Source: Escherichia coli (lineage in GTDB: Bacteria; Pseudomonadota; Gammaproteobacteria; Enterobacterales; Enterobacteriaceae). From it: a stretch of 64,000 bases of DNA. The translations under genes and the position numbers were made by a program. The notes below the pieces were generated by a model, which was given only the letters and a program-made list of their open reading frames with translations, made no database searches and was not told where the DNA came from. Below, one piece after another: positions 52,720 through 57,280 of this stretch; positions within the stretch are counted from its first letter, which is position 1; the number at the start of each line of letters is the position of its first letter. Location: the NCBI RefSeq assembly GCF_002854065.1, contig NZ_CP024147.1; one strand, 5' to 3'.

Positions 52720-53438
52720 CCGAGTTACCAATCGACGAAAACACACCGCGTATTTTGATCGTGGAAGATGAACCGAAGCTGGGGCAGTTGCTCATTGATT
52801 ATCTACGTGCTGCGAGCTATGCGCCGACGCTTATCAGCCACGGCGATCAGGTACTGCCGTATGTGCGCCAGACACCACCGGATCTGATCCTGTTAGATCT
52901 GATGCTCCCTGGCACCGATGGCCTGACGCTGTGCCGGGAAATTCGTCGTTTTTCTGACATTCCGATCGTGATGGTGACGGCAAAAATCGAAGAGATCGAT
53001 CGCCTGCTGGGGCTGGAGATTGGCGCAGATGATTATATCTGTAAGCCGTACAGCCCACGGGAAGTGGTAGCGCGCGTCAAAACCATTTTGCGCCGTTGCA
53101 AACCGCAGCGCGAGTTGCAGCAACAGGATGCTGAAAGCCCGTTGATTATCGACGAAGGTCGTTTTCAGGCTTCATGGCGCGGTAAAATGCTTGACCTGAC
53201 GCCTGCGGAATTTCGTCTGCTGAAAACGCTCTCTCATGAACCAGGAAAAGTGTTCTCCCGCGAGCATTTGCTCAATCATCTTTATGACGACTACCGCGTA
53301 GTAACCGACCGCACCATCGACAGCCACATTAAAAACCTGCGCCGCAAGCTGGAATCTCTCGACGCCGAACAGTCATTTATCCGCGCCGTTTACGGCGTCG
53401 GTTACCGCTGGGAAGCCGACGCCTGCCGCATCGTTTAG
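52716..53438 (+). CDS. baeR: Response regulator BaeR (OmpR family)
   Basis: 240 aa; receiver domain ([10 protein letters not shown]...[11 protein letters not shown]) and winged-helix output domain. Confidence 0.95.
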
Positions 53439-53628
53439 TTTTAGCGACATTATTTTGTTAGCCGGAGATGGCGTTCAGACCCGATCCGGCAACATTATCC
53501 CACGCATGGTCAGCAAACTGACATTATCTCTCCGCCCTGGCAGGCATCAGAAAATCGCTCATACTTTAATCGGTAAACAGCACCTTTAGATGCTGTTTTC
53601 GATACACAATTTCAATCAAGGAGTCATT

Positions 53629-53961
53629 ATGGCTGGTTGGTTTGAACTCAGTAAGAGCAGTGATAATCAGTTCCGGTTTGTGCTAAAAGCGGGCAATGGT
53701 GAGACTATCCTCACCAGCGAGCTGTATACCTCAAAAGCCTCTGCGGAAAAGGGCATCGCGTCGGTGCGTAGCAACAGCCCGCAAGAAGAACGCTATGAGA
53801 AAAAAACGGCAAGTAACGGCAAATTCTATTTCAATCTGAAAGCCGCTAATCATCAAATTATCGGCTCCAGCCAGATGTACGCCACCGCACAATCTCGTGA
53901 AACCGGAATTGCCTCCGTTAAAGCCAATGGCACAAGCCAGACGGTGAAAGACAATACGTAA
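53629..53961 (+). CDS. yegP: YegP (UPF0339/DUF1508 tandem-repeat small protein)
   Basis: Probable start MAGWFELSK with AAGGAG Shine-Dalgarno at 53617-53622; two internal repeats (FRFVLKAGNGETILTSELYTSK and FYFNLKAANHQIIGSSQMYATAQS). Confidence 0.85.
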   Translation: MAGWFELSKSSDNQFRFVLKAGNGETILTSELYTSKASAEKGIASVRSNSPQEERYEKKTASNGKFYFNLKAANHQIIGSSQMYATAQSRETGIASVKANGTSQTVKDNT

Positions 53962-54214
53962 TTACGATGCCGGGCGTGGGTTGTTGGCGTCCGGCTTTAT
54001 ATCCAAATAACGCTTAGTTATTGATAATTAAGAGTAACTGCCGCCATTAAAATAGTGGGCACTGACGAGCACTCGTTGTGCTTTCTTTGTTTACCATCCC
54101 ATACTTATCCTCCTGAACATGTTCATGTGCCAAAATATCTTCTAATACTTTCGTGACGCTATCCGGTTTATGACATACACTGATGTAAGATTTTTACTTA
54201 CAGGCGGGCGTAAA

Positions 54215-54466
54215 ATGGCCAGAACGATGACGGTTGATCTCGGCGATGAGTTGCGTGAATTTATCGAGTCCTTAATTGAATCCGGCGACTATCGCACCCA
54301 AAGCGAAGTGATCCGTGAGTCACTGCGATTACTTCGAGAAAAGCAAGCAGAGTCTCGCCTGCAAGCGTTACGTGACATGCTCGCAGAAGGGTTGAGTAGT
54401 GGTGAAGCTCAGCCGTGGGAAAAGGACGCGTTCTTACAGAAGGTGAAAGCAGGGATAAGGAAATAA
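54215..54466 (+). CDS. parD: ParD-like ribbon-helix-helix antitoxin (type II toxin-antitoxin)
   Basis: MARTMTVDLGDELREFIESLIESGDYRTQSEVIRESLRLLRE matches the ParD (COG3609) pattern; stop is 1 nt before the toxin start. Confidence 0.8.
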   Translation: MARTMTVDLGDELREFIESLIESGDYRTQSEVIRESLRLLREKQAESRLQALRDMLAEGLSSGEAQPWEKDAFLQKVKAGIRK

Positions 54467-54467
54467 T

Positions 54468-54764
54468 GTGCGTATTATTAAACTCATGCCAAAAGCCAAT
54501 GAGGATTTAGAAGGCATCTGGTATTACAGCTATCACCATTTCGGCGAACCACAAGCCGACAGATATGTGGAACATCTTTCAGACGTTCTCCAGATTCTGA
54601 GTAACAATAATATAGGTACGCCCAGACCTGAATTAGGCGAAGGTATTTTTGTTCTTCCTTTTGAACGCCACGTCATTTATTTCCTGCAATCACCAGGGGA
54701 AATTATCGTCATTCGTATCCTTAACCAAAACCAGGACGCCACCAGACATTTACACTGGAGCTAA
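54468..54764 (+). CDS. parE: ParE/RelE-superfamily toxin (type II toxin-antitoxin)
   Basis: 98 aa from a GTG start (an ATG at 54486 is an alternative); C-terminal HVIYFLQSPGEIIVIRILNQNQD fits the ParE fold; lower GC than neighbouring core genes. Confidence 0.8.
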   Translation: MRIIKLMPKANEDLEGIWYYSYHHFGEPQADRYVEHLSDVLQILSNNNIGTPRPELGEGIFVLPFERHVIYFLQSPGEIIVIRILNQNQDATRHLHWS

Positions 54765-54866
54765 ACCCGCCGATTGCGCTACAATGCCCGCCCTTAAAGT
54801 GGGGGCACTCCCCTAACCGCTTCATCAGGTGAAGCGGATCTGACCTGTCATCAGAACGAGAGAATT

Positions 54867-56228
54867 ATGTTTAAACCGGAACTCCTTTCCCCGGCGGGAA
54901 CGCTGAAAAATATGCGTTACGCTTTCGCTTATGGCGCAGATGCTGTTTATGCGGGCCAGCCGCGTTATTCCCTGCGTGTGCGCAACAACGAATTCAACCA
55001 CGAAAATCTTCAGCTCGGCATCAATGAAGCCCACGCGCTGGGGAAAAAGTTTTATGTCGTGGTCAACATTGCACCGCACAACGCCAAGCTGAAAACCTTT
55101 ATCCGTGACCTGAAACCGGTGGTGGAAATGGGGCCGGATGCGCTGATTATGTCCGATCCAGGGCTGATTATGCTGGTGCGTGAGCACTTCCCTGAAATGC
55201 CGATCCACCTCTCGGTGCAGGCTAACGCCGTAAACTGGGCGACGGTGAAATTCTGGCAGCAAATGGGCCTGACCCGCGTGATCCTCTCTCGCGAGCTGTC
55301 GCTGGAAGAGATTGAAGAGATCCGCAATCAGGTGCCGGATATGGAGATCGAGATCTTCGTTCACGGCGCACTGTGCATGGCCTACTCCGGTCGCTGCCTG
55401 CTCTCTGGCTATATCAACAAGCGCGACCCGAACCAGGGTACCTGCACCAACGCCTGCCGCTGGGAGTACAACGTCCAGGAAGGGAAAGAAGATGACGTTG
55501 GCAACATCGTACACAAGTACGAGCCGATTCCGGTGCAAAATGTTGAGCCGACGCTGGGTATCGGCGCACCAACCGACAAAGTGTTTATGATCGAAGAAGC
55601 CCAGCGTCCGGGCGAGTATATGACCGCGTTTGAAGATGAGCACGGCACTTACATCATGAACTCGAAAGATCTGCGCGCCATCGCCCATGTTGAACGCCTG
55701 ACCAAAATGGGCGTGCATTCGCTGAAAATCGAAGGTCGTACCAAATCTTTCTACTATTGTGCACGCACCGCACAGGTTTACCGCAAAGCTATCGATGACG
55801 CCGCTGCGGGAAAACCGTTCGATACCAGCCTGCTGGAAACTCTGGAAGGTCTGGCGCATCGTGGCTATACCGAAGGTTTCCTGCGTCGTCATACTCACGA
55901 CGATTATCAGAACTACGAATACGGTTATTCAGTTTCTGACCGCCAGCAGTTTGTTGGTGAGTTTACCGGTGAGCGCAAGGGGGACCTCGCGGCGGTAGCG
56001 GTGAAAAATAAATTCTCCGTTGGCGACAGCCTTGAGCTGATGACGCCGCAAGGCAACATTAACTTTACCCTTGAGCACATGGAAAACGCCAAAGGTGAAG
56101 CGATGCCGGTCGCACCAGGCGATGGTTATACTGTGTGGCTCCCGGTCCCGCAGGATCTTGAGCTAAATTACGCTCTCCTGATGCGTAATTTCTCTGGGGA
56201 AACCACGCGTAACCCACACGGTAAGTGA
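54867..56228 (+). CDS. yegQ: Peptidase U32-family protein YegQ
   Basis: 453 aa; MFKPELLSPAGTLKNMRYAFAYGADAVYAGQPRYSLR N-terminus typical of U32 collagenase-like proteins. Confidence 0.93.
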   Translation: MFKPELLSPAGTLKNMRYAFAYGADAVYAGQPRYSLRVRNNEFNHENLQLGINEAHALGKKFYVVVNIAPHNAKLKTFIRDLKPVVEMGPDALIMSDPGLIMLVREHFPEMPIHLSVQANAVNWATVKFWQQMGLTRVILSRELSLEEIEEIRNQVPDMEIEIFVHGALCMAYSGRCLLSGYINKRDPNQGTCTNACRWEYNVQEGKEDDVGNIVHKYEPIPVQNVEPTLGIGAPTDKVFMIEEAQRPGEYMTAFEDEHGTYIMNSKDLRAIAHVERLTKMGVHSLKIEGRTKSFYYCARTAQVYRKAIDDAAAGKPFDTSLLETLEGLAHRGYTEGFLRRHTHDDYQNYEYGYSVSDRQQFVGEFTGERKGDLAAVAVKNKFSVGDSLELMTPQGNINFTLEHMENAKGEAMPVAPGDGYTVWLPVPQDLELNYALLMRNFSGETTRNPHGK

Positions 56229-56399: not shown

Positions 56400-56557
56400 A
56401 TGCATAAGCCCTATCCCTGGTCACCGTCTTCCATTGACCACATCGATAGAATCTCCCTTCATAGCACGATGCCTTTCACGTAACGGCATCGTGCTCGCAC
56501 AGGTTCCGGCTAAGCACAACCAGAACGCGCATGTTTGATGCTTACCAAAAAATATTC

Positions 56558-56875
56558 TCACTCTCCACATTTGAATGTCAGACGAGCGACGCCATGTAAT
56601 CCTGCACCTTCTGTCTTCAGGTCAACTATCTGCATTTTTTTGCCCTGAGTAACACAGAAATGGGCTGCATCATTTTTTACTATATTTTCTGCACCAGATA
56701 TTCTGCCCCTGGCTAAAGAAGCTTCGGCTTCGGTGTAGTATTGGTTATCGAGTTTACGCTGAATATTACTTTTATATGCAAGACCAAATTTACCGATACT
56801 TGTTTCATCATTATGCACAGCACAACCAGATATAAGAAAAATACTAATTAATGATATAGCAGCTATCTTTTTCAT
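56558..56875 (-). CDS. yegR: Small lipoprotein (YegR-like)
   Basis: Probable start MKKIAAISLISIFLISGC (signal peptide with lipobox); about 105 aa; name assigned from position between yegQ/cyaR and yegS. Confidence 0.7.
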   Translation of the reverse strand: MKKIAAISLISIFLISGCAVHNDETSIGKFGLAYKSNIQRKLDNQYYTEAEASLARGRISGAENIVKNDAAHFCVTQGKKMQIVDLKTEGAGLHGVARLTFKCGE

Positions 56876-57280
56876 CTCACCTTCCCCCATTAAATACCAA
56901 CGACACTCTCTAGTGTTTAAATATAATAATGGCATGATTATTATAATTGAATAGGATTATAATAAATGTTCTGTACAACATTTCCTACATAAGTAGGAAT
57001 TACGGACATTGAGGCCCTTCAGGGTAACTCCATGGGGGCTTTAATATATTATATTGAAGATGCCACTGTTTAGTTGAATATTAGGTATATGCTCTTTTTT
57101 GAAATTTATCGGTGGCAGCCGTTAGTATTCGCTGTCCCCATTGCAAGCTCCTGGTGGTAACCACTGAATCTTCCATACTTGAACTGACTTTTTATCCTCC
57201 GACTTTCATCCTGTTCTGACTCCACCTTTTGTTTTCTGCTCTACACTATCTACAGACCAATCATAAAGGCACATACGATC

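Follow-up and report, generated by a model that had tools for sequence, protein, structure and literature searches.

The spacer between yegP and yegQ in Escherichia coli raises the question of what a small two-gene unit does there, whether it is a working toxin–antitoxin pair and how it came to reside at this site. The unit was found in a 64,000-nucleotide stretch of contig NZ_CP024147.1, referred to here as the window, and a sequence-only reading had proposed that it is a parDE-like type II pair that this strain had acquired. The pair proves to be an ordinary, intact-looking chromosomal ParDE, which is named correctly by RefSeq in more than 1,800 genomes and in that sense is already known. 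No experiment on the yegP–yegQ pair or on its RefSeq protein accessions was found in the searchable literature.

Two small co-oriented neighbouring genes make up the unit, both on the plus strand and both at the positions that the sequence-only reading had assigned to them. parD (54215–54466) has an ATG start and a TAA stop (54464–54466) and encodes a ribbon-helix-helix antitoxin of 83 amino acids (PF03693/TIGR02606), and parE (54468–54764) starts at GTG and encodes a ParE-fold toxin of 98 amino acids. A single nucleotide (T, 54467) separates the two genes, and the parE Shine–Dalgarno sequence, AAGGA, is found 6 nt 5′ of the GTG, within the end of parD. This is the layout of a type II toxin–antitoxin operon, with the antitoxin first and the genes tightly coupled.

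It should be pointed out that an in-frame ATG is also present upstream, at 54170, where the sequence-only reading began its region, and that PGAP takes this codon as the start to give a 98-aa antitoxin. Comparison with homologs supports 54215, not 54170, as the true parD start. The open reading frames of the Escherichia whittamii ortholog and of the homolog on the Klebsiella plasmid pINF078-VP start at MARTMTVD and have no possible upstream extension. In addition, the −10-like hexamer and the palindrome described below, both of them conserved, would sit inside the extension, and indels hit the extension while the 83-aa frame stays intact. The corrected start also accounts for a number of strains in which the gene is wrongly called a ‘frameshifted’ pseudogene. 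PGAP annotates parD and parE with no pseudogene flag in 56 of 59 sampled full-length carriers. In two of the three that are flagged, E. coli E308 and MDK6L1, ParD is called ‘frameshifted’, but the indels are confined to the extension and the 252-nt frame is gap-free; on this alignment the flags are annotation artefacts. The third is B379, which is listed in the same order as these two.

Profile searches, which had been proposed as a check, matched both proteins to the expected families, far above chance. ParD matches NCBIfam TIGR02606 at 89 bits (cutoff 46.2) and Pfam PF03693 at 2.9e-19 (model positions 1–76 of 81), and its N-terminus has an RHH_1 match at 0.0034 along with weaker similarity to the ribbon-helix-helix domains of NikR and CdrS. 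These matches bear out the description of the first gene as a ribbon-helix-helix ParD-like antitoxin. Among solved structures, residues 2–53 align to the crystallized ribbon-helix-helix fragment of PrpA (7YCV, 8e-18), and residues 2–78 align to PrpA itself (PDB 7YCS chain D, 2e-27) with ~61% identity over 77 residues, so that similarity to the PrpA C-terminal domain reaches residue 78 at the level of sequence. The β-strand RTMTVD is identical to that of PrpA.

ParE matches Pfam PF05016 at 2e-13 over model positions 1–88 of 89. The PF05016 profile also takes in RelE and alone does not discriminate ParE from RelE. The NCBIfam profile search gave no match for the toxin, whose identification rests on Pfam, the PDB matches and the fold. 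The best PDB sequence match is to 7YCS (2.3e-12, 33–36% identity, TM 0.88), identified as PrpT (PMC13048266), and the next matches for both proteins are ParDE1 of Mycobacterium tuberculosis, ParDE1 of Caulobacter and ParDE2 of Vibrio cholerae. An AlphaFold model of ParE was made from an alignment of 115 sequences obtained in a representative-protein search, which was also used for the residue counts given below. The model has a mean pLDDT of 93.9 and a β-α-α-β-β-β topology (strands at residues 3–6, 60–65, 68–74 and 78–86, helices at 8–25 and 27–46), in which a long α1–α2 hairpin is followed by a three-stranded sheet. In a Foldseek search of the PDB, ranks 1–22 are all ParE-type toxins, with TM values of 0.75–0.88, and the mRNases RelE, YoeB and YafQ fall behind them at TM 0.66 or less. 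The sequence-only reading had left the choice between a ParE and a RelE fold open for this GTG-start gene and had named loss of the conserved ParE fold as grounds for giving up the idea; the model and the structure search confirm that the fold is that of ParE.

Eight residues that are near-invariant in the clade, A10, D13, I17, A30, Y33, H68, R83 and L85, are all present in ParE. The mutational map of V. cholerae ParE2 (VcParE2) shows that Tyr33, His69 and His88 contribute to toxicity and that W25F weakens it (bioRxiv 10.1101/2025.07.24.666505). The first two of these are kept in the present toxin as Y33 and H68, and VcParE2 Phe20 is replaced by Tyr. At the position of His88, ParE has Asn86, where 98 of the 115 homologs have His and three have Asn, and at that of the key Trp25 it has Phe25 (Trp in 69 and Phe in 39 of the 115). 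Such differences make it less certain, though still credible, that ParE is strongly toxic or that gyrase is its target.

These substitutions bear on an alternative that we regard as unlikely, namely that the toxin is attenuated or acts on something other than gyrase, and that the antitoxin is the main reason for the module's retention, serving either to regulate or as an ‘anti-addiction’ safeguard against the ParE of enterobacterial plasmids that enter the cell. The Asn in place of the conserved His is in line with an attenuated toxin, and some chromosomal ParE proteins, e.g. Pseudomonas aeruginosa ParE1, have been described as non-toxic (bioRxiv 10.1101/2025.07.24.666505). However, the same study found that single alanine mutants of VcParE2, His88Ala included, were still lethal, with the exception of W25A, and parE of the present pair is annotated as intact in every sampled carrier, those with a flagged ParD among them.

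Gyrase is assigned to the present ParE by family membership, and it is the presumed target on that basis. For related ParE toxins, in vitro activity on gyrase is reported (bioRxiv 10.1101/2025.07.24.666505; PMC3001019, PMC10899793), and such toxins trigger the SOS response, make cells filamentous and compact the DNA (PMC6614396, PMC10203498). Two publications on PrpA/PrpT yielded no gyrase data for PrpT, the closest characterized relative.

To analyse the control region of the pair, the 120 nt 5′ of the ATG in the window were aligned with their counterparts in E. whittamii, in the Klebsiella plasmid and in a copy from an E. coli IncF plasmid. A −10-like hexamer, the palindrome GTAAG-N7-CTTAC, the Shine–Dalgarno sequence and the ATG are conserved in register at these four diverged loci, and farther than ~40 nt upstream of the ATG the sequences are unrelated. 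The hexamer (54176–54181, plus strand) is TACACT in the window and in E. whittamii; at the aligned position the Klebsiella plasmid has TATAAT and the IncF copy has TAAACT. A weak −35, GTGACG, is found at 54153–54158 on the same strand with a 17-nt spacer to TACACT, and together the hexamers of the predicted parDE promoter score 8/12, under the threshold of the promoter scan. The palindrome (54185–54201, plus strand) overlaps the expected transcription start. It occurs once in the 64-kb window, and as one occurrence is within chance, its support comes from conservation. Its TGTAA core is similar to the motif published for PrpA, TTTG(T/A)AAT. With this core, the conservation of the palindrome and the RTMTVD strand shared with PrpA, we read the hexamer and the palindrome as the putative parDE promoter and as a predicted ParD operator at the transcription start. 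The absence of a second palindrome site from the window also counts against a module retained chiefly for its antitoxin.

The locus is likely to be a chromosomal type II operon of a PF03693-type ParD and a ParE toxin that works by the canonical mechanism. A weak σ70 promoter with TACACT as its −10 would give a bicistronic parD–parE mRNA, and the 1-nt gap together with the AAGGA inside the end of parD may couple translation of the GTG-start toxin to that of the antitoxin. A ParD dimer, formed via the N-terminal ribbon-helix-helix, would bind GTAAG-N7-CTTAC at the transcription start and repress the operon. ParD would wrap ParE with its C-terminal half to yield a neutralized ParE:ParD2:ParE heterotetramer, as in PrpA2:PrpT2. 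Should degradation of ParD outpace its replacement, the ParE set free would most likely trap gyrase on cleaved DNA, which would lead to a replication block and an SOS response. The default role under this mechanism would be that of a self-stabilizing addiction module that persists at yegP–yegQ.

How the pair came to be at this site can be approached through strains that lack it. Alignment against empty alleles delimits an accessory segment of 777 bp (~53997–54773, plus strand), and at this position K-12 BW25113, ST131 JJ1887 and two Escherichia albertii genomes have only ~21 bp, which confirms that the pair is absent from E. coli K-12, as the sequence-only reading had stated. As had been noted, GC content is lower than in the flanking core genes: 0.44 in the segment (0.42 in parE and 0.50 in parD) versus 0.54–0.56 in yegQ, baeR and baeS and 0.52 in the whole window. 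The left junction directly follows the yegP terminator stem, and the right one lies 4 nt 5′ of TACAAT, the −10 of the predicted yegQ promoter. A search for direct or inverted repeats flanking the segment found none, and thus no insertion signature of the transposon or integrase type. The 21-bp filler of K-12, GCTTTACCAGAGCCCCCCACA, is loosely like the 3′ end of parE, CATTTACACTGGAGCTAAACCCGCC, and was considered as a possible deletion scar; it is, however, a short, variable stretch rich in C, and E. albertii has the empty allele too.

Within the segment, the non-coding upstream spacer (53997–54175, plus strand) is ~90% conserved in E. whittamii and is without a counterpart in the plasmid homologs. 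The GC content of 53997–54214 is 0.38, and the terminator scan shows a terminator-like hairpin at 54067–54083 followed by a T-run. A search of Rfam with positions 53400–55000 at a permissive threshold gave no match, and consequently lends no support to a small RNA in the ~220-bp upstream spacer or in the yegQ leader. A 33-aa open reading frame at 54055–54156 was considered and ruled out as coding, as indels in E. whittamii break the frame.

Between parE and yegQ is a second palindrome, which the sequence-only reading had reported in connection with the toxin–antitoxin pair. The palindrome itself is present (54817–54837, with 8-bp arms and a 5-nt loop), but its relation to the pair does not hold. 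It is unchanged in K-12, JJ1887, E. albertii and Escherichia sp. E1V33, and has one loop substitution in E. whittamii; because genomes with the empty allele keep it, it is outside the inserted module. The DNA around it differs by a few substitutions at most in these five genomes. From this comparison it is a core hairpin of the yegQ leader, one of three hairpins predicted in the leader of yegQ/trhP, with an unremarkable z-score of −1.9. The terminator scan found no T-run at this hairpin, and no terminator between parE and yegQ.

The segment also alters the sequence upstream of yegQ. The promoter scan predicts a yegQ promoter in K-12, TTTACC-17-TACAAT. In the occupied allele the segment replaces the −35 and spacer of this predicted promoter, and the scan calls no promoter there. 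With this loss and no terminator following parE, yegQ/trhP may be transcribed in part by read-through from parDE in carriers.

The segment is present in 1845 of 5426 complete E. coli genomes (34%), always as a single chromosomal copy and always at yegP–yegQ. Identity to the window is at least 99% in 1515 of these and 95–99% in 329, with a second haplotype group at ~97%. In the carriers sampled, RefSeq labels the products ‘ParD family antitoxin’ and ‘RelE/ParE family toxin’. Comparison of yegP–yegQ across strains bears out the accessory status proposed for the pair, which had been open to the objection that it might prove to be core in all related genomes. Beyond E. coli, E. whittamii has an intact copy with identical junctions and ~95% nucleotide identity, a homolog in Pluralibacter gergoviae is found at another chromosomal site, between alr and tyrB, and homologs with 60–80% nucleotide identity are carried by 881 enterobacterial plasmids, mostly conjugative. 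Such a distribution, together with a GC content of 0.44 in the segment against 0.52 in the window, is that of an accessory, horizontally mobile unit.

Some genomes contain only remains of the unit. Escherichia sp. E1V33 and E3659 have deletion remnants that consist of the left end and the last ~130 nt of parE, and E. coli MS20655 has an unrelated 5.2-kb island of four genes at the locus but retains the last 18 nt of parE. A ‘partial’ allele in strain BS-04 was rejected as a real variant, as it looks like an assembly artefact from homopolymer errors. The yegP–yegQ spacer appears as a variable hotspot with three alleles. The 1845 carriers, the two haplotype groups, the E. whittamii copy and the remnants speak against the strain-specific acquisition that had been suggested. 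On these comparisons the pair is an old presence/absence polymorphism with repeated loss, common to E. whittamii.

The remnants, the frameshift in the E. coli IncF plasmid copy L005 and an IS1 element upstream of the pair in E308 might be taken to mean that the module is a non-functional, decaying relic. This is extremely improbable for the copy in the window, where both frames are intact, no clade-invariant residue is missing, the regulatory elements are conserved and the between-species substitution ratios are low. Between E. coli and E. whittamii, dN/dS is 0.05 for parD (dS 0.23) and 0.11 for parE (dS 0.16), compared with 0.00 for the flanking yegQ (dS 0.38). These values, from small counts, indicate purifying selection on both parD and parE, and that on parE also weighs against an attenuated toxin. 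The lower dS of parDE relative to yegQ, again from small counts, would fit exchange through homologous recombination at a later time.

Within E. coli, between the window and the ~97% haplotype, parE has a dN/dS of 0.65 (dS 0.034), based on five nonsynonymous and two synonymous changes. The five substitutions include D90Y at a conserved Asp and could be cited in favour of an attenuated toxin, but the counts are too small for a conclusion; they hint at relaxed constraint on the toxin, or its attenuation, in that lineage.

Another role to consider is anti-phage abortive infection, whereby a phage would free ParE and the infected cell would be killed or arrested. A role as defence toxins is reported for some type II toxin–antitoxin systems, RelE/ParE superfamily members among them (PMC11980606), and the locus is a variable hotspot with an unrelated four-gene island in other strains. 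The PADLOC defence models, on the other hand, match neither ParD nor ParE, and no defence genes adjoin the pair in the window. The phage collection gave one partial match alone, to a 2-kb unannotated Salmonella phage record (53% of the query, ~72% identity), which also leaves a prophage origin of the segment without support. We consider a defence function to be highly improbable.

The plasmid homologs are the closest comparison, and it is there that the anti-addiction proposal finds its evidence. Those of Klebsiella pINF078-VP and of E. coli IncFIA/FIB plasmids belong to the same sub-clade as the chromosomal pair and have the GTG toxin start and the same hexamer and palindrome. Their nucleotide identity is 69–71% from ~54175–54185 to ~54760, a stretch that takes in the palindrome together with parD and parE. 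Among the IncF copies in E. coli, L005 is frameshifted; other IncF hits share its coordinates and identity, with the frame read in L005 alone. The pINF078-VP copy is intact, and its ParD is 92% identical in amino-acid sequence to the present antitoxin, while the toxins are merely 65% identical. Such a conserved antitoxin, and homologs on so many enterobacterial plasmids, are what might be expected if ParD acted against plasmid ParE. An antitoxin-centred role would also recall PrpA, which binds DNA in a second capacity, at plasmid iterons. A clear difference is that the plasmid homologs are on conjugative plasmids, whereas the present copy is fixed at yegP–yegQ.

A related question is whether the module matters beyond that of a simple addiction cassette, via side-effects on plasmid immunity and on yegQ/trhP expression. 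We think this quite doubtful. If true, ParD could protect carriers from post-segregational killing by parDE-bearing enterobacterial plasmids, and the tRNA uridine-34 hydroxylase gene yegQ/trhP could be driven by an autoregulated parDE promoter in one third of E. coli. Were ParE an active gyrase poison in B1-type strains, it would be a further candidate for studies of stress tolerance or plasmid interference. By-products of the analysis are the corrected antitoxin start, the predicted operator, the evidence for an old polymorphism and the three-allele yegP–yegQ spacer.

Among known systems, RK2 ParD/ParE is the founding one. Like the present pair it has a toxin of the ParE family, in RK2 with gyrase as the target, and an operon with the antitoxin gene first, but RK2 ParD belongs to PF09386 and is unrelated to the PF03693 ParD of the present pair. 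ParDE-I of IncI/IncF plasmids (Kamruzzaman & Iredell, 2019) and ParDE of the Yersinia plasmid pYV are functional analogues in enterobacteria, likened by function: their ParE triggers the SOS response and makes cells elongate with compacted DNA, and the plasmid is stabilized by the pair. Protein sizes are ParE-I 93 aa, Yersinia ParE 99 aa and Yersinia ParD 80 aa, against 98 aa for ParE and 83 aa for ParD here.

M. tuberculosis ParDE1 (8C24), Caulobacter ParDE1 (3KXE) and V. cholerae ParDE2 (7R5A) have the same fold and operon order, and all have a PF03693-type ParD. Their toxins are 26–31% identical to the present ParE, with TM values of 0.83–0.85. Activity on gyrase has been demonstrated for these three toxins, whereas for the present ParE it is presumed from the family.

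The best solved match for both proteins is PrpA/PrpT of the Pseudoalteromonas rubra plasmid pMBL6842 (7YCS, 7YCU). The two systems differ in setting: that of P. rubra is carried on a plasmid, whose copy number PrpA sets by binding ori iterons, whereas the present pair is chromosomal and has no replicon to control. The toxins are only about one-third identical, and PrpT keeps the conserved His where the present ParE has Asn. What they have in common is the same PF03693 and PF05016 pairing, the same RTMTVD strand and an operator motif with a similar TGTAA core.

The spacer between yegP and yegQ (window positions 53962–54866; yegQ is also termed trhP) is a hotspot for which three alleles are seen: one without an insert, one that holds parDE and one that holds a four-gene island. 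The empty allele is found in K-12, JJ1887 and E. albertii. The island, 5.2 kb in length, lies in the spacer of E. coli MS20655 (L018 14795–20121, minus strand) and its four genes encode hypothetical, DUF4034, DUF1266 and PcfJ-domain proteins; the final 18 nt of parE are still present at its right edge. The spacer of E. coli E308 carries an IS1A element (L015 1–283) 5′ of parDE, with an insertion point equivalent to approximately window position 54038. The 600 bp spacer of E. coli BS-04 (L016 1462–2061) is homopolymer-rich and matches the parDE insert only in part, and this sequence is most likely an assembly error.

Synonymous divergence of yegP between this E. coli (window 53629–53961) and E. 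whittamii (L007 3160–3492) is very high, with a dS of ~1.05 as opposed to 0.38 for yegQ. This suggests that the yegP gene beside the hotspot is a divergent or recombinant allele. Downstream of yegQ, at window positions 56550–57150, the GC content is low (0.33–0.38).

At the right junction of the insert, the TACAAT of a predicted yegQ/trhP promoter begins 4 nt downstream (within window 54774–54866). The predicted promoter in K-12 is TTTACC-17-TACAAT (L001 1539–1567), and its K-12-type −35 element is lost in the parDE-occupied allele. Since there is also no terminator 3′ of parE in this allele, transcription from the predicted parDE promoter may continue into trhP. The yegQ leader (window 54784–54866) is highly conserved, with three or fewer substitutions between the GCGCTACAAT hexamer and the yegQ ATG among E. 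coli, E. albertii, E. whittamii and cryptic-clade genomes; synonymous sites of the genes that flank it diverge, with dS values of 0.38 to ~1.05. Folding of the leader predicts three hairpins, and the short palindrome pointed out by the sequence-only reading is one of these. The leader has no match in Rfam.

The RefSeq/PGAP start of the antitoxin gene is 45 nt too early (window 54170–54214), which gives a protein of 98 aa. PGAP flags ParD as a ‘frameshifted’ pseudogene in E308 (L015 434–731) and E. coli MDK6L1 (L017 473–770) because of indels in this spurious extension; the 83-aa reading frame is intact in both strains.

Codon 86 of parE (window 54723–54725) encodes Asn, and 98 of 115 homologs have His, the equivalent of His88 in V. 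cholerae ParE2. A ~97% haplotype, present in 329 E. coli genomes (parE at L014 769–1065), carries D90Y and four further substitutions, against only two synonymous changes. Asn86, together with D90Y and the other changes of the ~97% haplotype, may attenuate the toxin.

The antitoxin is far better conserved than the toxin: between the chromosomal module (window 54215–54764) and that of the Klebsiella plasmid pINF078-VP (L006 2532–3081), identities are 92% and 65%, respectively. A similar asymmetry is seen relative to PrpA/PrpT of Pseudoalteromonas rubra, where the antitoxin shows ~61% and the toxin ~35%.
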